In this document: positions 5,271 through 57,561 of the stretch, piece by piece | Layout: every line of letters begins with the position of its first letter | Position numbering within the stretch: position 1 is the first letter of the stretch | Notes under the pieces: model-generated | Seen by the model: the letters and a program-made list of their open reading frames with translations, nothing else | Database searches by the model: none | Told to the model about the DNA's origin: nothing | Program-made: the position numbers and the translations under genes | From: Candidatus Saccharimonadota bacterium | GTDB lineage: Bacteria > Patescibacteriota > Saccharimonadia > Saccharimonadales > UBA10212 | DNA length: 58,078 nucleotides | Reading direction: 5' to 3' | NCBI GenBank assembly: GCA_016187125.1 | Contig: JACPKF010000006.1 | Location: 1 to 58,078, forward strand

Positions 5271-5412
5271 CAGAAGCCTCCTTTGGAGATAGCGATCAAT
5301 TCACAATTTTGCAATTTACAATCAATTTTCAACCATTTAATTTTCAAGCGTTTATAGAATTGGTGCATTGGTACTTGAATAGAAATTGGAAAATGGAAAA
5401 TGGAAATTGTTT
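5271..5412. repeat. Low-complexity imperfect hairpin spacer between gyrB and gyrA
   Basis: A CAATTT/CAATTTTCAA-rich arm is followed by a GAAATTGGAAAATGGAAAATGG arm. Confidence 0.7.
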
Positions 5413-13799: not shown

Positions 13800-14119
13800 G
13801 CACTTGAATAAAAAAAGTGCTCAAAACAAAAACACTAAATAGAACAACGGCTTCTCGCAAGCCGTTGTTCTATCCAAAAGTAATAAAACAAAGAATCGTT
13901 CGCCAACCTCCAAACCCAGCACCTAGCTTCGAGCGCTTCGCAAAAAATTATCCGTCCAAGCGGATAATCTCGGAGCTAGGTGCTGGGCAAACACCCAACC
14001 CAGTAGTAGACTTTCGCGACTATCCGCAAGGCGGATACTGGCAAAGCCACGCAAAAGCTCACTACTGGGCCAACCAAACATTACAAAATGGCCCGCAAAA
14101 CTCGGGCCATTTTGTTTTA
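13800..14119 (+). ncRNA. Candidate ~320-nt structured RNA ending in an intrinsic terminator
   Basis: Three long hairpins lie at 13840-13872, 13915-13987 and 13999-14069. The terminator is ATGGCCCG-loop-CGGGCCAT plus TTTGTTTT (14085-14119). Confidence 0.4.
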
Positions 14120-16610: not shown

Positions 16611-16788
16611 TCGTGATTGCATCACTCCAATTATCAATTAGCAATTTTCAATTCTGCCTACTCCGCCGAAGTAGCTTCGGCTACGAAGGCCGAGCAATGA
16701 ATAATCAATTATCATTTATCAATGCAGTTACATGGAAAATGGTCAATGGTCAATGGTCAATGGTCAATGGTCGCGTAGAGGATATATC
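16611..16788. repeat. Hairpin spacer between rpmI and rplT, including a TGGTCAA heptamer tandem repeat (16739-16773)
   Basis: ATGGTCA occurs four times in tandem. There is a GTAGC-TTCG-GCTAC hairpin and ATCAATTA repeats. Confidence 0.75.
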
Positions 16789-20065: not shown

Positions 20066-20141
20066 TGGTCGGGGTGACAGGACTTGAACCTGCGACCTCA
20101 CGGCCCCCAGCCGTACGCGCTACCAGCTGCGCCACACCCCG
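20066..20141 (-). tRNA. tRNA-Pro (GGG), CCA encoded
   Basis: The rc is CGGGGTG..GCGC-AGCTGGTA-GCGC..TACGG-CTGGGGG-CCGTG..GCAGG-TTCAAGT-CCTGT-CACCCCG-ACCA. Confidence 0.93.
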
Positions 20142-20220
20142 CCACTTGGCTATTTTATCAGAGAAGCCTAAATGGGGTCCCCGCAAAGTGCCAACGCAGT
20201 GCATTTTGTGGGGAGAGGGG

Positions 20221-20298
20221 CAACAATACAAGACCCCGCTAATTTTTGGCTACCCAGGTCGCCAAAAATTTCTAGCGGGGTTGATATTAGTTGCGACG
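20221..20298 (-). terminator. Conserved 78-nt hairpin module, copy 1
   Basis: ACCCCGC..TTTTGGC...GCCAAAA..GCGGGGT. It is ~90% identical to 37824-37898, which directly follows tRNA-Gly. Confidence 0.6.
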
Positions 20299-20431
20299 AG
20301 GTAGCCGGCTCCGGCACTCAATTACTCTGCTTTCGCAAAGTGGGTGTCCGCACGCCAAGTCCACGGACTAAAGCGCATGTAAGACTCCCTGTTGTAAACT
20401 ATTCAGAAAATTTATTGTGCCGTCACCGACT
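20299..20431 (-). ncRNA. Candidate ~130-nt small RNA (unknown class)
   Basis: On the minus strand an extended -10 TGCTATAAT lies at 20438-20446. The 3' end abuts the same module that follows tRNA-Gly. The ends can pair (CGGTGACGGCAC with GTGCCGGAGCCG), and there is a GAAA-capped 7-bp stem. Confidence 0.35.
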
Positions 20432-21071: not shown

Positions 21072-21112
21072 CCATAACAGTATAGCGGAAACTACAAACC
21101 GGCAAAGTTTAA

Positions 21113-21138
21113 CAAAAATCAGCGATCGCTGATTTTTG
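21113..21138. promoter_or_regulatory. 26-bp perfect palindrome, candidate operator
   Basis: CAAAAATCAGCGATCGCTGATTTTTG lies between divergent genes. A near-identical palindrome lies at 57523-57548. Confidence 0.5.
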
Positions 21139-21206
21139 TTAGGTAGGTTGATTTTATCTGTTTTTATCTATAGAATTGAGCTTTGAACCTATTTTAGGAT
21201 TTAATC

Positions 21207-22425: not shown

Positions 22426-22715
22426 CTAGAACCCATTTCAATACCTCCTTCGGAGTTCGAGAGACTCAATTCCAGGTTAAAGATGACTGATTTCTTGCGA
22501 CAAGCTGTACCCATTGGTACATCGCGAAGTGAAGCACCGCCAATAGGAGTTGGCGGCTTCCCAGATTACGGTGCGAAACCCCGCACCGAAGGCCAATGCA
22601 CCAACTATCATCCACCGACAGGAGTCGGTGGCCTTCTGGTGCGTGGGGCAAAAATCAGTTAGATTGCCTGGAATCTGGTTCGCAGAAGGAAGGTAGGTTT
22701 TGAAATGGGTTCTAG
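22426..22715. mobile_element. 290-bp TAGAACCCA-terminated inverted-repeat element (MITE-like or structured RNA), copy A
   Basis: The termini are CTAGAACCCATTTCA and TGAAATGGGTTCTAG, with the imperfect inverted repeat extending to ~25 bp. The interior is dense in GC hairpins. Confidence 0.6.
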
Positions 22716-23407
22716 CCGGATTTAAGTACAATCAGGCGTGCCGTGTCGGTAAATTCAGCCGCTTTGGGCTTATATTTATCTAGGGTCTCGCTGGGCTCCA
22801 TGGCCAGAGCCTTAAGAGCCTCAGCTAACTCAGCTTGGGGCACTTGGTACTTAATAGCTACACCTGCGTAGTGAGTTGGAATAATGACTTTAGGCTCAAG
22901 CTTCTTGATTATCTGCAGAGCCCCTGCTCCGTCTAATGTATAGCCATTGCCGCCAACCGGCACTACGGCTATATCCACCAGCCCAATTTGTTCCAGTTGG
23001 TCGTCGCTAAGCTCGGGATAAATATGGCCTAAAATCGCCACTTTCAAATCATCGGCCGAGATCGTATAGATAACGGCGTTATGGGCATCCGGCTCATCCA
23101 TCCCGTTAGAAGTCCGATTCGCTGAGCGCGAATCGGCAGATTTCTGCGAAGTCTTACTTCTAACGGGATCCATATGAGACCGGGCAGCAATGCCGTGAAT
23201 AGCCACGCCGGAAATTTCGTATTCGCCGGGCATATCGGCTTTAAAGCGAGCTTCGTGATCCGGGATGCCGGCGTGGGTGTTGAGGCTTATATCAGTTGGC
23301 TTGGTTATGGTTTTTAAACCAAGCTCTGCCAAATTGTCGTCAATAACGATAGCGGCTTTTTTGGTAGTTATACGCAGACAATTGGCACCGTAGTACTGCA
23401 GTTCCAT
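22712..23407 (-). CDS. MBL-fold metallo-hydrolase (UPF0173-like) with a 24-aa palindromic-element insertion
   Basis: It has a beta-lactamase-fold layout ending ...VIIPTHYAG. The stop TAG lies inside the terminus of element A. Confidence 0.75.
   Translation of the reverse strand: MELQYYGANCLRITTKKAAIVIDDNLAELGLKTITKPTDISLNTHAGIPDHEARFKADMPGEYEISGVAIHGIAARSHMDPVRSKTSQKSADSRSANRTSNGMDEPDAHNAVIYTISADDLKVAILGHIYPELSDDQLEQIGLVDIAVVPVGGNGYTLDGAGALQIIKKLEPKVIIPTHYAGVAIKYQVPQAELAEALKALAMEPSETLDKYKPKAAEFTDTARLIVLKSG
23096..23173. mobile_element. CCCGTTAGA palindromic element, copy 1, in frame within a CDS
   Basis: ATCCAT-CCCGTTAGAAGT...ACTTCTAACGGG-ATCCAT. The arms are 12 bp and there are two internal hairpins. 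The element plus one direct repeat is 72 nt. Confidence 0.7.
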
Positions 23408-25019: not shown

Positions 25020-25275
25020 TGGCCATTAGCTAAATTATTAGTCATTAGCAAATTAGCAAAAAATCTTTTGGTAAATGTTAAATGAAGCCTCCACGGCTTT
25101 ATACCCGTGGTATTCTTCATTTCTTCGGCGGAATCCGCCGAAGCACCCTCCTTCGCTTTCCAAGCTTCGGAGGGTCCACCGTTCGCCTTCATCCATGGGC
25201 TTAGGCCCATGGTCTTCTGCGAAGGCGGATAATACTTAATTAGTAAATGGAAACTGAGAAACGATAAATGACTTG
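25020..25275. repeat. 256-nt multi-hairpin spacer between murT and gatD
   Basis: ATTAGC/CCATT low-complexity arms, plus hairpins CTTCGGCGG-AAT-CCGCCGAAG, CCCTCC...GGAGGG and CCATGGGC-TTAG-GCCCATGG. Confidence 0.7.
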
Positions 25276-26550
25276 TCATACCCTTGCTACCCTTGTGCGC
25301 TTTGCCAGAACCCGCCTAACCGCCAGCATGGCCGTATAGGTAGCATAAATAATAGCTGTTTGGCCTTCGGTGGTCTGGGCCTCTAGCACGTCAAGCATTT
25401 GCTTGATATCTGGCGTAACTTTCTGAGGGGCTATTTGGTCATATTTTAAACGCAGAGCCATATCATAAGCTCTGACACCGCTAGTTAGGATCGGTTTAGG
25501 CACCCCACTTAAAGCTTCAAAGTCAATGTCCCATAGCCACGAAACATCGCGTCCATCGGCGTAATCATCGTTGATTACTATTGCCGTAACACTAGGTTGA
25601 TGAATATCTAAAACATGCAGGGCTTGACGAAAGCTGGCGGGGTTTTTAATTAACTGCAAAATTAGCTTGCGCCCGCGGTAGTCAATTAGCTCTCCCCGCC
25701 CAAAAGCCGGCTCGATATCGGACAAGATCTTTAGCAGATTGGCTGTATTGGCTCTCGGGTAAAGTCCTAGCAGAACCCCTAGAGCAGCGGCTGCGTTGAG
25801 CGCGTTGTGTTGGCCATCCATCTTTAAATTAACACTGTATAGTTGATCACCAATTTTATAAGTCGCCGATGAGTCAACAATCTTGGTAAGTTCTACTTCC
25901 CTTTTGTGCGGGAGGGTACGTGGCTTGTCTTGAGCGTAAAGTTGCTCATCATTAGGAAACTGAGCCGTCAGGTTTTTAGATATACCAAAGTAAGCCGCCC
26001 GGGCGGTTGCTGGAGGCGTCATTGCCGCCGCCCGATTATCATCATCATTCAGCACTATTAACTCCTTAGTGTTGTTAACTACTTGCTGGAGCAATTTGGC
26101 AGTCGTGTCAATTTCGCCAAAGCGGTCCAGCTGATCCCTGGTAACATTAAGCACCAAGCTAACCCGTGGACGGTGCAGACGCACAAACCGCGCGGCGTAA
26201 GCCTCGTCTAGTTCGACAACAGCCATGTCATAAGGCAGTTTTGCGCTTAAAGAAGCAGCTTGAGCCACCGTCGAAAAGATGCCTCTTACAAAATTACCTC
26301 CGGTTTTATTAGTCAGCACTCTTCTGTTTTGAGACCGCAGCAGCTGAGTGATTATCTTGGTAGTTGTGGTTTTACCGTTAGTACCGCTAACAACAATCAC
26401 GCCTTCCGGCAACTGGTGTAGCATCGAATCTAAAAAGCCCGGATGGAGTTTCTCAACAATTAAGCCCGGCAGCGCCGCGCCGTGGTGGCCAGTGGCCCGC
26501 AGCCCCCAACCCAGAACCTTGGCAAACCAAATAAAGACAATGTTTAACAC
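25276..26550 (-). CDS. murT: Mur ligase family protein MurT
   Basis: It has the P-loop VSGTNGKTTTTK and a C-terminal DUF1727-like region. It is paired with gatD. Confidence 0.85.
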   Translation of the reverse strand: MLNIVFIWFAKVLGWGLRATGHHGAALPGLIVEKLHPGFLDSMLHQLPEGVIVVSGTNGKTTTTKIITQLLRSQNRRVLTNKTGGNFVRGIFSTVAQAASLSAKLPYDMAVVELDEAYAARFVRLHRPRVSLVLNVTRDQLDRFGEIDTTAKLLQQVVNNTKELIVLNDDDNRAAAMTPPATARAAYFGISKNLTAQFPNDEQLYAQDKPRTLPHKREVELTKIVDSSATYKIGDQLYSVNLKMDGQHNALNAAAALGVLLGLYPRANTANLLKILSDIEPAFGRGELIDYRGRKLILQLIKNPASFRQALHVLDIHQPSVTAIVINDDYADGRDVSWLWDIDFEALSGVPKPILTSGVRAYDMALRLKYDQIAPQKVTPDIKQMLDVLEAQTTEGQTAIIYATYTAMLAVRRVLAKRTRVARV

Positions 26551-28406: not shown

Positions 28407-29651
28407 TCACTTACTACGAGATGAGGCTTGCTCAGCTATTTTAGCCAGAAAATCGTCGATAGCCATAGCTTGAGCCGGCTGTTTGCCCAAGTCGGAACGC
28501 ACCCGCGGCACTATTTTTTTAGAATCGAGTTCCTTTTGACCAATAACTACTGCGTAAGGCACCTTCATAACCTCGACGTTGCGGATCTTTTTGCCAACCG
28601 ATTCATTACTGTCATCGAGCTCTGCTCTAATACCTAACTGCTTAGCACTTTCTACAACGTTTTTGGCCATTTTTAAGATAGATTCTTCGTCATTCAGTGT
28701 CATAATCCGCAATTGCTCAGGGGCTAGCCATAGTGGAAATTTTCCGCTGGTATGTTCGATATAGATGGCCAGGAATCTTTCGATAGATCCCAGCAGTGCA
28801 CAGTGAATCATTACCGGTCGCTGCTCATGACCTTTTTCATCTATGTATGACAGTTTAAATCGTTCTGGTTGGACAAAATCAAGCTGAACGGTTGCTAACT
28901 GCCACTCCCGGCCCAGTACATCTATGGCGATAAAGTCTATCTTAGGACCATAAAAGGCAGCATCGCCGGGAGCTACAGAATATGCCAGTTTTTCGGCTTT
29001 TGCTACTTGTTCCATAATTTTTTGGGCTTTATCCCATAGCTCAGATGATCCCAAATAACCCTTCCCTTTATCTCTAAATGACAGTCGGAATTTAAGCCCC
29101 ATGCCTATGGTTTCATAAGTTTCTTGAGCGGCTTCAATTAACTCCTTGACTGAGTTTTCGATTTGGTCGGGCCGGCAAAAAACATGGCTGTCATCCATAC
29201 TGATAGAACGGACTCTAGCTAAACCCTGTAGTTCTCCGCTTTTCTCGTCTCGGTAAACTGTGGCTGTTTCGAGGTACTTAAATGGTAATTCTCGGTAGCT
29301 GCGGGGTCTAGAGGCGTATATCTGGGTATGGTGGGGGCAATTCATCGGTTTTAGGACTAATTGGTCTTTTGTTTCCTGGCTTTTTACCAAAAAAAGCTCT
29401 GCGCCAAATTTATCCCAATGACCTGAGGTCTTATAGAGATCCGTCTTAGTTATATGAGGCGTCCATACCTTGCTAAAGCCTCTTCTCTCTCTGAGTTCAT
29501 TAGAATAGGCCATTAACTGCTCCCGTAGAACAGTTCCACGCTGTGTCAACATCGGCAAACCCGATCCCACTAGTTCACTCGTGACAAATAGGTCAAGTTC
29601 CTGGCCTAGCTTACGGTGATCGTTGTCATCCAATTTTTGCGGCTCATCCAT
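28407..29651 (-). CDS. thrS: Threonine--tRNA ligase, short form without TGS and editing domains
   Basis: It contains DHRKLGQELDLF, class II motif 2 YRDEKSGELQGLARVRSISMDDSHVF, motif 3 GSIERFLAIYIEH, and an anticodon-binding C-terminus. The start is placed at ATGGATGAGCCG, while the listed ORF starts at 29666. Confidence 0.93.
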   Translation of the reverse strand: MDEPQKLDDNDHRKLGQELDLFVTSELVGSGLPMLTQRGTVLREQLMAYSNELRERRGFSKVWTPHITKTDLYKTSGHWDKFGAELFLVKSQETKDQLVLKPMNCPHHTQIYASRPRSYRELPFKYLETATVYRDEKSGELQGLARVRSISMDDSHVFCRPDQIENSVKELIEAAQETYETIGMGLKFRLSFRDKGKGYLGSSELWDKAQKIMEQVAKAEKLAYSVAPGDAAFYGPKIDFIAIDVLGREWQLATVQLDFVQPERFKLSYIDEKGHEQRPVMIHCALLGSIERFLAIYIEHTSGKFPLWLAPEQLRIMTLNDEESILKMAKNVVESAKQLGIRAELDDSNESVGKKIRNVEVMKVPYAVVIGQKELDSKKIVPRVRSDLGKQPAQAMAIDDFLAKIAEQASSRSK

Positions 29652-29762
29652 CCCGTTAGATCTCACTTAACTTTCTAATATATTAGTTAATGCCTGAAAA
29701 GCGCTCACGTGTTCAATCGTGCAACTATTTACGGTCGTCTTCTGAGATCTAACGGGATCCAT
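29646..29762. mobile_element. CCCGTTAGA palindromic element, copy 2, inserted directly behind the thrS start codon
   Basis: ATCCAT-CCCGTTAGATCTCA, then 77 nt, then TGAGATCTAACGGG-ATCCAT. The arms are a perfect 14 bp. Confidence 0.75.
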
Positions 29763-30167
29763 AATTCACTCCATCATAACACCTGTAATGAGACAAAACC
29801 TAGGTTTTTTCTTTATCGTTTATTGGCCAAGCCAAGCTCAAAAGAGTAAATTTACGATTTTTTTGACCAATAAATGCCCTAGTTCAACAAAAAACTGGCT
29901 TGAGCAGCCTCGCAATGCTGTTCAAGCCAGTTTATGTGATGCTTTAACACATCGGCAAAACTCAACCTACGAAAGAGTATATATACGCTAGCCATAAAAT
30001 GCTAGTACTTTTTTGTTAGTTTATCCACAGCTGTGGATTAGTATCTTTTATACCATATATGATAGCCCTGCAGCAAAGTCTTGCCTACTCTATATCACAT
30101 AAGGTAAGTTCCGCGACGCTACAGTTGGAATCCCGATCGAGGCACGGGGAGTTATAATATTTATTAA

Positions 30168-37224: not shown

Positions 37225-37355
37225 AAAGCCTTTAACCATTCACTGTTTACCATTCACGTCGCATTAGCCATTGACCATAATCTATTTACTATGGATAACG
37301 GAAAATGGATCACCGTCAAGGCACGGTAAAAGGAAAAAGGATAACGGAAAATGGA
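37225..37355. repeat. ACCATTCAC...ATGGATAACGGAAAATGGAT element, copy 3
   Basis: Same family and same orientation as 851-963 and 34790-34920. Confidence 0.7.
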
Positions 37356-37357
37356 CT

Positions 37358-37714
37358 TCATTGGAGTGAAATCAGAGAATTAGCCACAATCGTAGATAAA
37401 ATTAGAAGAAATAAACCACTGACTAAAATAAAAACCGATACATAGCGCTGAACAAAGTAGGTTCGGGCACTCAAAACCACAGCCGCAAAAGCCGTGATAA
37501 TCATAAAAAGAGCCAGGCTATAAATATCAATCGGTTTGCCACTTTGATAACTACTACCGGAGATATTAGGCCGGTAAGCCACAATTGTTGTTGGGTTATT
37601 AGAAACATCAAACCGCAGCAGCACTAAGCTAACTCCTACAACCAGAACCACCGCTAGTAAACTAATAAGCAGTAGAACCAAGCGGTCGTGTAAAAATTTT
37701 TTAGGTAATTCCAT
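37358..37714 (-). CDS. Hypothetical membrane protein (118 aa)
   Basis: Three hydrophobic segments. Confidence 0.55.
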   Translation of the reverse strand: MELPKKFLHDRLVLLLISLLAVVLVVGVSLVLLRFDVSNNPTTIVAYRPNISGSSYQSGKPIDIYSLALFMIITAFAAVVLSARTYFVQRYVSVFILVSGLFLLILSTIVANSLISLQ

Positions 37715-37823
37715 AAAAATTTAGCTGTTAGTCTCTAGCTCAAAGCTCTTAGCCATAAGACTTATTCTACACCGGAAAGTTGGGGCCCCCAAGCCGTGAG
37801 AATACGGCTTGGGGAAAAGGAGT

Positions 37824-37898
37824 AACAATACAAGACCCCGCTAAATTTTGGCTACTTGTTCGCCAAAATTTCTGGCGGGGTTGATATTAGTTGCGACG
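37824..37898 (-). terminator. Conserved hairpin module, copy 2, directly 3' of tRNA-Gly
   Basis: ~90% identical to 20221-20298. Confidence 0.65.
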
Positions 37899-37972
37899 TG
37901 GTGCGAGTGACGGGAATTGAACCCGTATCCCCAGCTTGGGAAGCTGGTATACTGCCACTGTACTACACTCGC
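37899..37972 (-). tRNA. tRNA-Gly (CCC), CCA encoded
   Basis: The rc is GCGAGTG..CCAGC-TTCCCAA-GCTGG..ACGGG-TTCAATT-CCCGT-CACTCGC-ACCA. Confidence 0.92.
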
Positions 37973-40362: not shown

Positions 40363-41481
40363 TTAAAAGCGGACGTAGGTCTTGGATGGTTCTTTAGCCT
40401 GCAAGTCTTTAATGTAGAACGAGATGTCTTTTAGATTGAAAGAAATATGCTGAGCCGTGACAGTTGTGCCGTCGCTCCCGATAACTTTAACAATTTCTAG
40501 GGTGTCGGGCTTATTAATATCCACCCGGCTGGCTAAAATTATGCCCGAAACTTGGCCGGCTTTGAGTTTAAACAGCTCATTAATAACCTCTGGGGACACA
40601 TTGGGATTAGTTTTGGTGATGCCAAAACCCCAGTCGCCGTTACTGGCCTTACTGGGATCGTCGGAGTTTTGGGCGGCCAGGCTGCCAAAATCAGCCCCAG
40701 CATTAGACTGGGCTAAAACCGATTGGGCTTTAGCCTGTGCGCCGACGTCGAGTTTGGCTACCACTCTCTCAGCCAGCATTTGGTCCTTTAGACTGCGTCT
40801 AAAATCGGCGATCGACCAACCCCAATAATCCCGCAGCACATCAGCAAACACTTTATTGTTGCTACCCAGGCGGTTTTGCTGACGGACTTCATTTATCCGA
40901 GCGTCGACTTCGCGGTCCGAGACTTTAACACCGTTTTTCTTGGCCAGGGTTTTTACATAGCCGTTATTGATCACGTTTTGCAGAGCCTGCTTCCTAAACT
41001 GATTTATTTGCTGCTGGCCGCCAAACAAGCGCTGTTGTTGAGTTTGGTAATAATGAATATAGTGTCGCAGTTCAAACAAATAATTCTCGTAATTCACGTA
41101 TGCATCGCCGGCACGGGCTATGGGAAACGGAATAACTTGGGTAACCCGGTAAAGGAAAGTGTTGTACTGGTAAAACTTATAAAGCGCTAAGCCGCAGTAA
41201 ACCAAAAAAGTTATTATGGTAACGGCTGCGATACCACTGCTAATAACCAAAATGCGGTGCTTAGAATGGGCCAGCGGATAAATATATTTACGGGCTCCAG
41301 ACAGCACCTCTTCCCTGTGCTCGGTAATAGTTTCACTGGTAATATGCGGAACATCCTTAAGAGATATCGGCTCTGGTGGCCGGGGCAACGGACTAAAACT
41401 GGCGGCCTTTTCGGTTACCACGTCCGGCAATAGTTTTTTGACCTTTTTAACTCTTTTTTTGAAATGCTTTCTCAGTTTCAT
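40363..41481 (-). CDS. Membrane-anchored SurA/PrsA-like parvulin peptidyl-prolyl isomerase
   Basis: It has a TM anchor, a SurA_N-like region and a parvulin segment ...FGSLAAQNSDDPSKASNGDWGF... Confidence 0.75.
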   Translation of the reverse strand: MKLRKHFKKRVKKVKKLLPDVVTEKAASFSPLPRPPEPISLKDVPHITSETITEHREEVLSGARKYIYPLAHSKHRILVISSGIAAVTIITFLVYCGLALYKFYQYNTFLYRVTQVIPFPIARAGDAYVNYENYLFELRHYIHYYQTQQQRLFGGQQQINQFRKQALQNVINNGYVKTLAKKNGVKVSDREVDARINEVRQQNRLGSNNKVFADVLRDYWGWSIADFRRSLKDQMLAERVVAKLDVGAQAKAQSVLAQSNAGADFGSLAAQNSDDPSKASNGDWGFGITKTNPNVSPEVINELFKLKAGQVSGIILASRVDINKPDTLEIVKVIGSDGTTVTAQHISFNLKDISFYIKDLQAKEPSKTYVRF

Positions 41482-42098
41482 AGCTCTTCGTCGTCTTGAT
41501 CATGGTCTTTTTCAGTACCGGGCCGCATAGTATGATGAATTCCCAAATCTCTCAAAATGTGCACCATTTTTTTCTGGACTTTTTCTGGGTGGTGCACTTC
41601 GTTAATCACCAAATCTCCCACGTAAGTTTGTACGACTATTGTACCAAAACCCAGCATCGTCTGTTCTAGTCCGGCGATTTGATAATTAATCATTTGTATC
41701 TGTTCTAGGCCAATATCCACTACATTTACCTGGAGCAAGCTGCGGGTTTGTTGAATAAAACGCTTGTCGGTCATTATATAAACGCTGAAGTACCAGCGGA
41801 CCCACCAGGGGAATAATATGAGTACAAACAGTAAGAAACCGCCAACTAGCCCGCCAAAAAAAACACCGTACTGTGGTTTTATAAGCGCTGGAGTCATAGC
41901 CAAAAGCAGACCAGCCGATGCAAATATTATTCCCCGGCGCATAACAATCGGGTGTTTTCTAAACACCAGCATTGTCTCTTCGTCTTCAAACTGCTCTTTA
42001 AAATATTTGGGCTTACCCGGTAGTGAGTCCGCCTCGGTGGGTCTACTACCGGGCCTCTTGACTTCAACTTCATTCTCTTTGGCTGGCTTTTCGCTCAT
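41478..42098 (-). CDS. Bacterial PH-domain (YdbS/YdbT-like) membrane protein
   Basis: Two TM segments are followed by the bPH_2-like YIMTDKRFIQQTRSLL...GFGTIVVQT. The start is placed at ATGAGCGAA (42098). Confidence 0.7.
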   Translation of the reverse strand: MSEKPAKENEVEVKRPGSRPTEADSLPGKPKYFKEQFEDEETMLVFRKHPIVMRRGIIFASAGLLLAMTPALIKPQYGVFFGGLVGGFLLFVLILFPWWVRWYFSVYIMTDKRFIQQTRSLLQVNVVDIGLEQIQMINYQIAGLEQTMLGFGTIVVQTYVGDLVINEVHHPEKVQKKMVHILRDLGIHHTMRPGTEKDHDQDDEEL

Positions 42099-42294
42099 CC
42101 CGTTAGAACCCACTTACCTTCCGTAGTTTGGTTAACGATTGAACGCGGGCGCTTGCCCAGTAGTGAGCTTTCGAGATTATTCGCCTTCGGTGAATATTCA
42201 TCTGTTCTTGCAGATGGACTCGAAAGTCTACTACTGGGCTTGCTTCAACGTAAAAATAAATATTGTAGGTCTTTTGGGTTCTAACGGGACTCAT
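42094..42294. mobile_element. CCCGTTAGA palindromic element, copy 3, inserted directly behind a start codon
   Basis: CTCAT-CCCGTTAGAACCCA, then 162 nt, then TGGGTTCTAACGGG-ACTCAT. The arms are 14 bp. Confidence 0.7.
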
Positions 42295-42393
42295 GGCTAC
42301 ATTATATCCGGCCTTCGTAGCCAAAGCTACTTTGGCGGAGTAGGCTAGGTTAGAGGTTGTAGGTTACAGGTTGCGGACTTAAAATACATGTAC

Positions 42394-43261: not shown

Positions 43262-44182
43262 ATGAGCTATGAAGACGCTGTCGCCCAGTTCTTAGAATAT
43301 CAAGAGCTAGAACAAAACCGCTCAAGCAAAACCATTGAAAATTACAGCCATTACTTAACTCGCCTTAGCGACTTTGCCGGTGATATTAAGCTCAAAGATA
43401 TTGACGTCGAGCTAATCAGGAAATGGCGGTTGTGGCTTAATCGCTTGGGCACCAACACCTCTGATGAGCTGTCTAAGGTGACTCAAAACTACCATCTTAT
43501 TGCTCTGCGCAGTTTTTTGCGTTTTTGCGCCAAGAGAGGGATAACCGCCCTTGCCCCAGATAAGATAGAGCTGGCTCGAACCACTCGCCCCCAAGTGACC
43601 TTTTTAACTTCTGAAGAGCTCGAAAGATTGACTGCCCAGCCTAATGTTGCGACTCTGAATGGGCTGAGGGACCGGGCTATTATTGAACTGTTGTTTTCCA
43701 GTGGGCTGCGAGTCAGCGAGTTAGTAAGCCTCGACAAAGATCACATCAATCTTCGGCGCCGGGAGTTTATGGTCCGCGGCAAGGGCCAAAAAGACCGGCC
43801 AATTTTTATCAGCGCTGAGGCAGCTGACTGGATCCAAAGATATTTGGACAAGCGTCAAGATAATACAAAACCGTTATTTATCAGATACAGTGGCAGTAAA
43901 AAGGTCGATTTATCCGGTAATTACCATCGCCTGACGGCCCGCAGTGTCCAGCGTATGATTGCCCGCTACGGCTTGGCCGCCGGCATCACTAAACACGTAT
44001 CCCCCCATACTTTAAGACATTCGTTTGCAACCGATTTATTGATGAACGGAGCTGATTTGCGCTCAGTTCAAGCCATGCTGGGCCATAGCAACATCGCCAC
44101 TACTCAAATCTACACTCATGTAACTGATCCACATCTCAAAAAAGTTCACGAGCAGTTCCATCGAGCGGCCAAAAGAAGTTAA
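43262..44182 (+). CDS. xerC: Tyrosine recombinase, XerC/XerD family
   Basis: It has an N-terminal SAM-like domain, plus GLRVSELV, HTLRHSFAT and LGHSNIATTQIYTHV. Confidence 0.9.
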   Translation: MSYEDAVAQFLEYQELEQNRSSKTIENYSHYLTRLSDFAGDIKLKDIDVELIRKWRLWLNRLGTNTSDELSKVTQNYHLIALRSFLRFCAKRGITALAPDKIELARTTRPQVTFLTSEELERLTAQPNVATLNGLRDRAIIELLFSSGLRVSELVSLDKDHINLRRREFMVRGKGQKDRPIFISAEAADWIQRYLDKRQDNTKPLFIRYSGSKKVDLSGNYHRLTARSVQRMIARYGLAAGITKHVSPHTLRHSFATDLLMNGADLRSVQAMLGHSNIATTQIYTHVTDPHLKKVHEQFHRAAKRS

Positions 44183-44559: not shown

Positions 44560-44680
44560 CCTGACTCTCAAAACCCTATAGTTGTGGGAATAAATTCAGC
44601 GACCGCTGAATTTATTCCCATGTTTAGAGATCAGAAACCAAGTCGAAATTAAATCTTCAGACACAGTTTTGAGAGTCAGG
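44560..44680. repeat. Nested inverted repeats
   Basis: The outer 15-bp repeat is CCTGACTCTCAAAAC / GTTTTGAGAGTCAGG. The inner 16-bp repeat is GGGAATAAATTCAGCG / CGCTGAATTTATTCCC. Confidence 0.7.
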
Positions 44681-57522: not shown

Positions 57523-57548
57523 CAAAACTCAGCGATCGCTGAGTTTTG
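57523..57548. promoter_or_regulatory. 26-bp perfect palindrome overlapping the -35/spacer of the downstream promoter
   Basis: CAAAACTCAGCGATCGCTGAGTTTTG. TATAAT lies at 57550-57555, 6 nt before the ATG at 57562. Confidence 0.5.
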
Positions 57549-57561
57549 TTATAATTTGTCT

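Follow-up and report, generated by a model that had tools for sequence, protein, structure and literature searches.

How a cell produces threonyl-tRNA synthetase (ThrRS) when a palindromic element occupies the start codon of its thrS gene is the question raised by a locus in a 58,078-nt stretch of Candidatus Saccharimonadota bacterium DNA (GCA_016187125.1, contig JACPKF010000006.1, forward strand positions 1-58,078), the whole of which is referred to here as the window. In the present study, we regard the element as a non-autonomous hairpin that resembles a MITE (miniature inverted-repeat transposable element), inserted at thrS with a duplication of its target, and ThrRS as being most likely produced by translational coupling to a short open reading frame (ORF) that begins at the original start codon and runs through the element; the probability that we assign to this joint reading is approximately 0.65.

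Insertion at the thrS start codon

On the minus strand, the start of thrS reads GGAGTGAATT ATGGAT CCCGTTAGATCTCA, followed by 77 nt and then TGAGATCTAACGGG ATGGAT GAGCCG. The two arms are perfectly complementary over 14 bp and extend outward by a further 2 bp (AT/AT) to a total of 16 bp, the hexamer ATGGAT is repeated on both sides with a period of 111 nt, and the TAA of a 31-codon upstream ORF is located 15 nt ahead of the proximal ATG. The 14-bp arms, the flanking hexamers, the period, the ORF, and the 15-nt gap had been described in an earlier note on this DNA, and all of them are in the sequence as written there. The features of the locus are as follows:

29651..29757, minus strand: element copy 2, 107 nt with its terminal T and A (T-CCCGTTAGATCTCA ... 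TGAGATCTAACGGG-A), missing in five relatives
29743..29757, minus strand: left arm of the terminal stem, a perfect complement of 29651-29665
29651..29665, minus strand: right arm of the terminal stem; the regenerated ATG begins with its final base, A
29758..29761, minus strand: left copy of the target-site duplication TGGA, delimited by the flank statistics of 141 copies
29647..29650, minus strand: right copy of the target-site duplication TGGA, delimited by the same flank statistics
29760..29762, minus strand: original thrS start codon, at which the element-borne upstream ORF now begins; uninterrupted in relatives
29649..29651, minus strand: regenerated ATG, composed of the terminal A of the element and the duplicated TG, as indicated by copies of the ATGAAC...GTGAAG type
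29667..29762, minus strand: upstream ORF MDPVRSQKTTVNSCTIEHVSAFQALTNILES, 31 codons plus TAA; homologous ORFs are open in 25/26 unique subfamily copies
29664..29666, minus strand: GTG, candidate restart codon that would add MRSNG to ThrRS; its G, at -15, is kept in 24/25 copies
29671..29676, minus strand: purine box AGAAAG, resembling a Shine-Dalgarno (SD) sequence, 4 nt 5' of the GTG; subfamily consensus G-R-A-A-G
29773..29781, minus strand: extended -10 promoter box of thrS, TGTTATGAT, 10 nt 5' of the original ATG; conserved in five relatives
28407..29651, minus strand: thrS ORF, intact, 414 aa from the regenerated ATG, with class-II core and anticodon-binding domains (Pfam PF00587, PF03129)

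The GTG directly follows the TAA of the upstream ORF (TAAGTG, 29669-29664) and is in frame with thrS, and the folding energy of the element at this locus is about -32 kcal/mol.

The insertion was confirmed by a comparison with related genomes. In five related Saccharimonadales, the ThrRS of which are 72-78% identical, the thrS site is uninterrupted and reads TGTTATGAT-N8-12-ATGGATGA, or more fully (G)GTGTTATGAT / TGTTATTAT, 8-12 nt, and ATGGATGA(G/T/C), and CCCGTTAGA, the terminal motif of the element, does not occur at any of these five loci. The comparison of thrS 5' regions proposed in the earlier note accordingly yielded five empty sites, which bear out its claim that this is an inserted element and that its deletion restores the 5' end of the gene. 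The filled site was present in three independent assemblies from different sequencing runs, in which ThrRS is 100% identical and the DNA is the same as that of the window, with the element included. We also checked whether the same 107 nt forms a conserved leader in most relatives, and this is not the case. Since the N-terminal consensus of the clade is M-D-E-x-x-K-L..NDHRRLG, with which MDEPQKL..NDHRKLG in the window agrees, the thrS ORF that follows the element is the ancestral one and is intact; its start codon was regenerated by the insertion.

These findings also bear on the possibility that thrS in the window is poorly expressed or dead, the cell using another ThrRS encoded elsewhere. 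Long (about 614 aa, with an editing-related domain) and short (about 411 aa) forms of the enzyme occur among Saccharibacteria, and this genome was seen as 58 kb only, which leaves room for a second gene; however, besides the intact ORF and its fitting N-terminus, the filled allele is fixed in three samples, only one thrS is found among the genes of the window, and the subfamily of elements described below is located on the starts of many other essential genes, including thrS of a second lineage, with their ORFs intact. We consider a second ThrRS to be very improbable as the solution.

Regarding the enzyme itself, ThrRS of this clade is short (about 411-414 aa; 28407-29651 in the window, P0075-P0120) and has no N-terminal domains, and other Saccharibacteria possess a ThrRS of about 614 aa with PF07973 (tRNA_SAD), the identity in the common part being about 65%. 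The N-terminal extensions of two ThrRS homologues (P0023 and P0033) were considered as possible elements and found to be gene-caller artefacts.

The element family and its target sites

The window contains the 9-mer CCCGTTAGA six times, arranged in three facing pairs, whereas 0.35 occurrences are expected from shuffled sequences and none of 100 shuffles reached six; the expected number of facing pairs is 0. Further degenerate copies were looked for in the window and none were found. The two additional pairs delimit copies 1 and 3:

23101..23168, minus strand: element copy 1, 68 nt with its termini, flanked by duplications TGGA at 23169-23172 and 23097-23100
42098..42289, minus strand: element copy 3, 192 nt with its termini, flanked by duplications TGAG at 42290-42293 and 42094-42097
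42301-42306: -10 box TATAAT, 6 nt 5' of the original ATG of the host gene of copy 3
42155..42239, minus strand: 85-nt hairpin of another (GTAG-type) family nested in copy 3, the removal of which leaves exactly 105 nt

All three copies have perfect arms of 12-16 bp and orthologous empty sites in relatives. Copy 1 is located in the middle of a gene for an MBL-fold protein (22712-23407, 231 codons, Pfam PF13483), to which it adds 72 nt, duplication included, corresponding to 24 codons in frame and without a stop. Homologues of this protein are essentially all 207 aa in length, that is, the window protein minus 24 residues, and the site is empty in the DNA of two close relatives, L132 and L133 (...CATATGGATGA(A/G)C...). 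A moderate-quality model (pLDDT 69) places the insert in an unstructured segment or loop between two strands of the predicted fold. Copy 3 occupies the start codon of a gene for a PH-domain membrane protein (41478-42098), and the site is empty in L203 and L204 (...TACAAT-gttagc-ATGAGCAAAAAAGAG). Its upstream ORF comprises 63 codons and stops at a right-arm TAA that precedes the regenerated ATG by 4 nt; without the nested hairpin, its 105 nt can be aligned to copy 2. The earlier note had placed two further copies at duplications containing an ATG; both copies exist at the positions given there and the statement is correct to the letter, but copy 1 is internal to a gene and not at a start.

In order to describe the family, one genome per species was scanned for CCCGTTAGA and TCTAACGGG separated by 46-106 nt, which gave at least 120 stretches, and the statistics below refer to 141 copies from more than 100 genomes among the matches listed. 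The family is present in Saccharibacteria, many Parcubacteria-type lineages, Omnitrophota, Planctomycetota, Desulfobacterota, and others, and the same 10-nt termini recur across these many phyla, which led us to reject a MITE private to the candidate phyla radiation (CPR). The earlier note knew of no described element family with this behaviour in CPR bacteria; we found no published description of the sequence or of its behaviour (siting at start codons, their regeneration, and a maintained coupling ORF) in the literature, and the family is apparently undescribed so far, but its range extends beyond CPR bacteria.

The unit is Y-CCCGTTAGA...TCTAACGGG-R with a 4-bp target duplication, TnnA. The 14-bp stem is composed of nine invariant base pairs, three inner pairs that covary (A-T/G-C/C-G/T-A), and two outer pairs, and pairing collapses at position 12. 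Between the two flanks, the TnnA positions are 72-80% identical and the outer two positions about 50%, against a background of 20%, and the duplication is perfect in 85 of the 141 copies. The target logo carries information at r-TnnA-y only. The first base of the right flank always pairs with the last base of the left flank, as in ATGAAC...GTGAAG, and because of copies of this type the terminal purine is assigned to the element and the duplication to 4 bp. The hexamer ATGGAT, which the earlier note took for the flanking direct repeat, is therefore present at thrS, but the true duplication is TGGA, the adjoining T and A being element-borne, and a 6-bp duplication was discarded in favour of 4 bp plus the terminal Y/R. 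An extended target site was also considered since copies 1 and 2 share the 12 nt ATGGATGAGCCG at their insertion sites, and this idea fails because both loci had this sequence ancestrally (each of the two proteins reads M-D-E-P) and the logo is empty beyond r-TnnA-y.

Elements range from 62 to 190 nt, with lengths clustering at 64-79, 92-106, and 112-124 nt, and minimal versions of 30-45 nt also exist. Their interiors are unconstrained in the broad set, except for occasional partial copies of the end motif, and contain short ORFs only, with no transposase gene. Tandem arrays were observed in which two elements are separated by exactly one R-TnnA-Y hexamer, each junction recreating the target site (L044, 2943-3104; L059, 7674-7895; L188/L202; L199), and some of these arrays mix subfamilies, with a 66-nt type followed by a 103-nt type before one start codon. 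Regarding an autonomous partner, no long end pair enclosing an ORF was found in approximately 1 Mb of loci, the collection scans having covered ends up to 600 nt apart; matches that appeared to have no partner were considered as autonomous forms and proved to be mismatched 103-nt copies, tandem arrays, or chance matches. The covarying 14-bp stem and the TnnA duplication point to a transposition or recombination activity that may lie behind the element, and the covariation suggests that a hairpin may be required, as in REPIN/RAYT systems. Two other ideas were not retained. Recombinase-type core matching was not relied on, because the concordance of duplications within loci is weakly suggestive at most (6/12 against 2.6, P 0.035, with one pair representing a duplicated region), and a phage vector was rejected, typical anatomy being shown by only 3/16 viral contigs that matched the pattern.

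Considering the distribution of the copies, start codons are strongly over-represented: 41% of the copies in this multi-phylum sample lie on them, against 6.3% expected (6.5-fold; p about 2e-32) under a null model in which every non-coding or start-codon rTnnAy site in the same loci is equally usable. Among 140 copies listed, 58 have as their right hexamer an ATG or GTG from which 80 or more codons are open, the other two frames accounting for nine each, and in the subfamily of the window 34 of 36 complete copies are on starts, so that the wider search proposed in the earlier note supports a preference of the kind that it had suggested. In-frame embedding, as in copy 1, is a minority (8/133 broad-set copies in open frames versus 55 at start codons). 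When the insertion is into A-TGnA, the terminal purine and the duplicated TG rebuild an ATG or GTG before an untouched ORF, and the upstream open frame is short in the broad set, with a median of nine codons. The 85 perfect duplications are skewed in keeping with this habit (TGAA/TTCA 32, TAAA/TTTA 18, TGGA/TCCA 12, and TTAA 0). The excess at start codons may be due to active targeting or to the survival of insertions there. A separate class (L058, L092, L098, L100, L117, and L147) has a conserved left flank, AC(T/C)TGT, and not the right-hand ATGxxx repeat; its copies often lie just downstream of a TATAAT-like box and have no upstream ATG.

Among the promoter features of the host genes, a -10-like TANNNT was found 5-9 nt upstream of 25/57 element-bearing starts versus 186/994 in the comparison set (odds ratio 3.4; peak spacing 6), and a -10-like hexamer at such a spacing has been published as a hallmark of leaderless genes (PMC3160421). 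Few starts of either set carry SD-like motifs (16 and 18%), and 12 of 39 genes in the window are preceded by one. The claim in the earlier note that the only SD serves the distal ATG is not supported in this context. The GGAG of the window is not kept in relatives, which have the -10 box TGTTATGAT and no SD, and because the box is conserved and GGAG is not, the latter is probably not the driver of initiation. Furthermore, since the relatives lack an SD and conserve the extended -10 box 8-12 nt before the ATG, thrS looks near-leaderless.

Small mobile sequences that affect genes in related ways have been described, including the in-frame inserts known as RPE, Neisseria REP2 repeats that donate a site for ribosome binding (RBS) together with an ATG, and Correia hairpins that are cut by RNase III (PMC3184786; PMC2229807). 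By form, the present element is a MITE on the basis of its inverted ends, duplication, small size, and empty sites. In common with Correia/NEMIS, RUP, and ERIC elements, it is about 65-125 nt in length, lacks a transposase gene, has an inverted-repeat stem and a target duplication, occurs in many copies with empty and filled sites in relatives, and would be transcribed within host mRNAs; however, known MITEs are confined to particular lineages, lie mostly between genes, and duplicate TA, whereas the present termini cross phyla and the duplication is TnnA (PMC2229807; PMC3184786). Also unlike known MITEs, the family sits on start codons and rebuilds them, one of its subfamilies has a maintained upstream ORF, and no parent insertion sequence (IS) with the same ends was found in the approximately 1 Mb of loci. 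Copy 1 and the other in-frame copies resemble RPE in being palindromic mobile units that can lie in frame in protein genes and be translated, but such embedding is the minority here, there is no sequence relation, and RPEs show no association with start codons (PMC2229807). The purine box, GTG, and regenerated ATG recall REP2, in which translation-initiation signals (RBS and ATG) are fused to downstream ORFs (PMC3184786). In contrast to the present element, which keeps the host start and re-uses it for the upstream ORF, REP2 has neither terminal inverted repeats nor a target duplication and brings a promoter.

Bypass elements (T4 gene 60 and the mitochondrial byps) are likewise inserts in a coding region with identical short flanks and a hairpin, from which the host protein is still made; unlike them, matched codons at thrS are a by-product of the duplication, take-off is not followed by a stop, and selection acts on the interior frame to keep it open. 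Hairpin doublets with compensatory changes in the arms, short variable interiors, and minimal 30-45-nt versions are also typical of REP/REPIN sequences, which are mobilised by RAYT (HUH) transposases. REPINs are not known to leave a target duplication and REP sequences are species-specific, whereas the present family has a clear 4-bp duplication. Among cut-and-paste transposons, the piggyBac elements duplicate TTAA and have ends starting with CCCTAGAAAG..., and the IS1380 family produces duplications of 4-5 bp. A 4-bp T..A duplication and ends beginning with CC(C) recall these transposons, but none of the 85 perfect duplications is TTAA, a further Y/R base separates the duplication from CCC, and no transposase was found in the approximately 1 Mb of loci. 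Integron attC sites have the order RYYYAAC ... GTTRRRY and recombine in the 3' core site. The ATCTAAC and GTTAGAT of the present element are reversed (GTTAGA first and TCTAAC last) and there is no cassette or array context, and this candidate was rejected.

The upstream frame and the synthesis of ThrRS

Evidence on how ThrRS would be made comes mainly from the subfamily to which copies 2 and 3 belong. A metagenome scan for their common, asymmetric left end (CCCGTTAGANCNCANAAGAC) gave 53 stretches with 36 complete copies, 31 of which are 103-106 nt in length, and their orientation relative to the gene is the same as in the window in 32 cases versus 2; the interiors of the broad set are too diverse for orientation to be read. 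The hosts belong to 19 distinct families, including, as judged from N-terminal sequences, an Ile/Val-type aminoacyl-tRNA synthetase, MurB, a Mur ligase, MurJ, and DprA. A second thrS host was also found, an orthologue with 63% identity that is hit at the same codon and has closer relatives with empty sites. The two thrS insertions (the window and L169/L177) were considered as one orthologous event, and this was rejected because their interiors are 60% alike, close to the median of 57% for random pairs.

The ORF from the original ATG of the host is open to within 20 nt of the restart codon in 25/26 unique copies versus 5.7 +/- 2.1 in shuffled sequences (P < 0.0005), and interiors of the subfamily are only about 57% identical. 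On this comparison with shuffled interiors, the upstream frame is shown to be under selection to stay open. It remains open in copies with nested inserts of 85 and 160 nt, and a stop is retained in all five copies with a mutated right arm. The stop of the ORF is either the right-arm TAA (UAA-CGGG-AUG; with a core length of 1 mod 3) or part of an AUGA overlap (2 mod 3), and one of these two arrangements, with the stop 4 nt before the ATG or overlapping it, is found in 24 of the 26 unique copies. When the copies are lined up by their right ends, positions -24 to -20 are occupied by an unpaired purine box, G-R-A-A-G, with 80-92% conservation, and the G of an in-frame GTG at -15 is kept in 24/25 copies, although stem position 15 pairs in 1/25; the box and this G together are 80-96% conserved although unpaired. 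At thrS, the copy (105 nt, in frame) has its TAA abutting the GTG; AGAAAG precedes this GTG by 4 nt, and the ATG follows the TAA at a distance of 15 nt. In the broad set, the same trend toward an open ORF is present and weaker (18/46 versus 7.3 expected), GGAG-like 4-mers lie 10-11 nt before the restart in 9/58 copies, and no -10-like hexamers or SD-like 4-mers were found at a fixed distance.

The following series of events is consistent with these observations. The element was inserted into A-TGGA-T, the first two codons of thrS, whereby the original ATG, with its native promoter and initiation signals, came to open a 31-codon ORF encoded by the element, and the terminal A plus the duplicated TG rebuilt an ATG before the untouched thrS ORF. 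Ribosomes would initiate at the original ATG, read through the element, melting the 14-16-bp stem, and terminate at the TAA of the upstream ORF. They could then restart at the abutting in-frame GTG, which follows the purine box, or at the regenerated ATG 15 nt downstream. Among the three routes that the earlier note had left to the cell, termination-reinitiation is favoured because the upstream ORF is kept open in nearly all copies and its stop abuts the regenerated start, whereas bypass and RNA excision are disfavoured because an open frame and the placement of the stop would be irrelevant to either.

A different explanation of the same conserved signals is independent initiation, in which ribosomes bind directly either where the purine box and GTG lie or to the regenerated ATG, on transcripts that arise by read-through or from an element-internal promoter, the upstream ORF being incidental. 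SD-independent starts are the norm in these genomes, conservation extends to the unpaired purine box and GTG, some copies have no upstream ATG at all, and copy 2 holds -10-like hexamers such as TATATT 10 nt before the GTG. However, these hexamers lie at no fixed distance from the restart codon, the 14-16-bp stem sequesters the GTG as well as the ATG as long as it is not melted, and neither the open frame in 25 of 26 diverged copies nor the abutting stop is explained. We regard independent initiation as unlikely for thrS.

The strictly conserved, covarying stem also invites the suggestion of RNA-level removal, in which a double-strand- or structure-specific RNase would cut the stem and place the 5' end of the mRNA near the regenerated ATG for near-leaderless translation. 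The cleavage of MITE hairpins by RNase III in Neisseria mRNAs is a precedent (PMC2229807), and the enrichment of host genes for leaderless-type promoters by the criterion of PMC3160421 would fit. On the other hand, a conserved stem is expected anyway at the ends of a mobile element, removal gives no reason for an open upstream frame or for a stop at the restart, and cutting a coding copy such as copy 1 would destroy the mRNA. Moreover, the covariance models of Rfam 15 gave no gathering-score match in the window and no Rfam or ribozyme-like match at E <= 10 in 29560-29860. Removal of the element from the mRNA appears quite improbable.

Translational bypass similar to that of T4 gene 60 would involve take-off at the first ATGGAT and landing on the second, with 111 nt skipped. 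The two hexamers at thrS are identical and flank a stable hairpin, as this would require, but their identity is a by-product of the 4-bp duplication and the element termini, and the sixth base differs in most copies (ATGAAT/ATGAAA, ATGAGT/ATGAGC), which leaves the second codon unmatched. There is no stop directly after the take-off site, where CCC GTT AGA would be read as P-V-R, the nascent peptide is not long enough for a signal, gaps range from 70 to 270 nt, and bypass would make interior stops irrelevant, contrary to what was found in the subfamily. A bypass is hardly credible here.

Several points weigh against reinitiation as the route to ThrRS. In the thrS copy, the distance from the stop to the ATG is 15 nt instead of 4 nt, and early termination affects about 60% of the upstream ORFs of the broad family. 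Due to these early stops and the AC(T/C)TGT copies without an upstream ATG, coupling is not a universal solution; in the AC(T/C)TGT class, the lack of an upstream ATG means that the downstream gene would be expressed by another route, and some copies must presumably rely on direct SD-independent initiation or RNA processing. The stem could impede the very first ribosome on an mRNA with a short leader, and selection for an open frame could represent avoidance of Rho-type polarity and not reinitiation as such. We infer reinitiation itself and the choice of restart codon, GTG or regenerated ATG, solely from sequence conservation, and the term MITE describes form and not mechanism because no autonomous partner or transposase was found.

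A broader reading is that of a hitherto unrecognised, cross-phylum, hairpin-dependent class of element that actively targets first codons, especially those of leaderless genes, and has evolved to be "translationally transparent"; it would be moved by an enzyme so far unlinked to any IS family. Its landmark could be an initiating transcription or translation complex or melted promoter DNA, and its interior would be a disposable ORF followed by a purine box and GTG that hand ribosomes to the host gene. We put this reading forward as a tentative possibility.

If translational coupling is the correct explanation, these elements represent a route by which a mobile element enters extremely compact genomes, by landing on starts instead of between genes, and the damage to essential genes, such as those for aminoacyl-tRNA synthetases and cell-wall enzymes, would be neutralised by the rebuilt start and coupled translation. 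The copies would also constitute a natural experiment, with many replicates across phyla, on reinitiation and on SD-independent or leaderless initiation in uncultivated bacteria. They are in addition a hazard for annotation, since automated gene prediction may append MxSNG-type extensions to proteins or overlook the short ORFs.

Other repeats and genes of the window

The hairpin nested in copy 3 (42155-42239) belongs to a second family with GTAG-type arms, (G)CCCAGTAGTAGAC ... CTCACTACTGGG(C), that resemble GTAG-tagged REP-like repeats. Further members are located at 13999-14075 and about 13916-13990, in the intergenic region at 13.9-14.1 kb. A short hairpin of this type, CCCGGTAGTAGAC-CCACCGAGGCGG-ACTCACTACCGGG, lies in frame in the PH-domain gene (about 42019-42056, minus strand) and encodes ...PGSRPTEADSLPGKP..., and a few homologues (P0243, P0249, and P0272) contain a comparable additional segment, which most others lack. 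By its sequence, this hairpin is a putative second kind of mobile hairpin translated into protein.

A 37-nt hairpin, GCCTACTCCGCC-AAGTAGCTTCGGCTAC-GAAGGCCG, occurs twice in inverted orientation with 95% complementarity (16656-16692 and 42309-42345), one copy being immediately upstream of the promoter of the host gene of copy 3. A gene for an XerC/XerD-type tyrosine recombinase (43262-44182; PF00589, PF02899) lies about 1 kb from copy 3, and no link between the two was established.

Three copies of a palindrome around GCGATCGC (CAAAAATCAGCGATCGCTGATTTTTG) at 21103-21141, 44590-44618, and 57523-57558 are probably intrinsic terminators or a HIP1-like motif. A direct repeat of approximately 90 nt (20210-20302 and 37812-37902, 89-95% identical) adjoins tRNA-Pro (20066-20141) and also overlaps tRNA-Gly (37899-37972) at the end of that gene. 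Short tandem runs of (A/T)ATGG(T/A)CAATGG and GGAAAA(C/T)GGA are present at 904-971, 5382-5404, 16729-16770, 25243-25278, and 37262-37361, several of which are near RNA genes.

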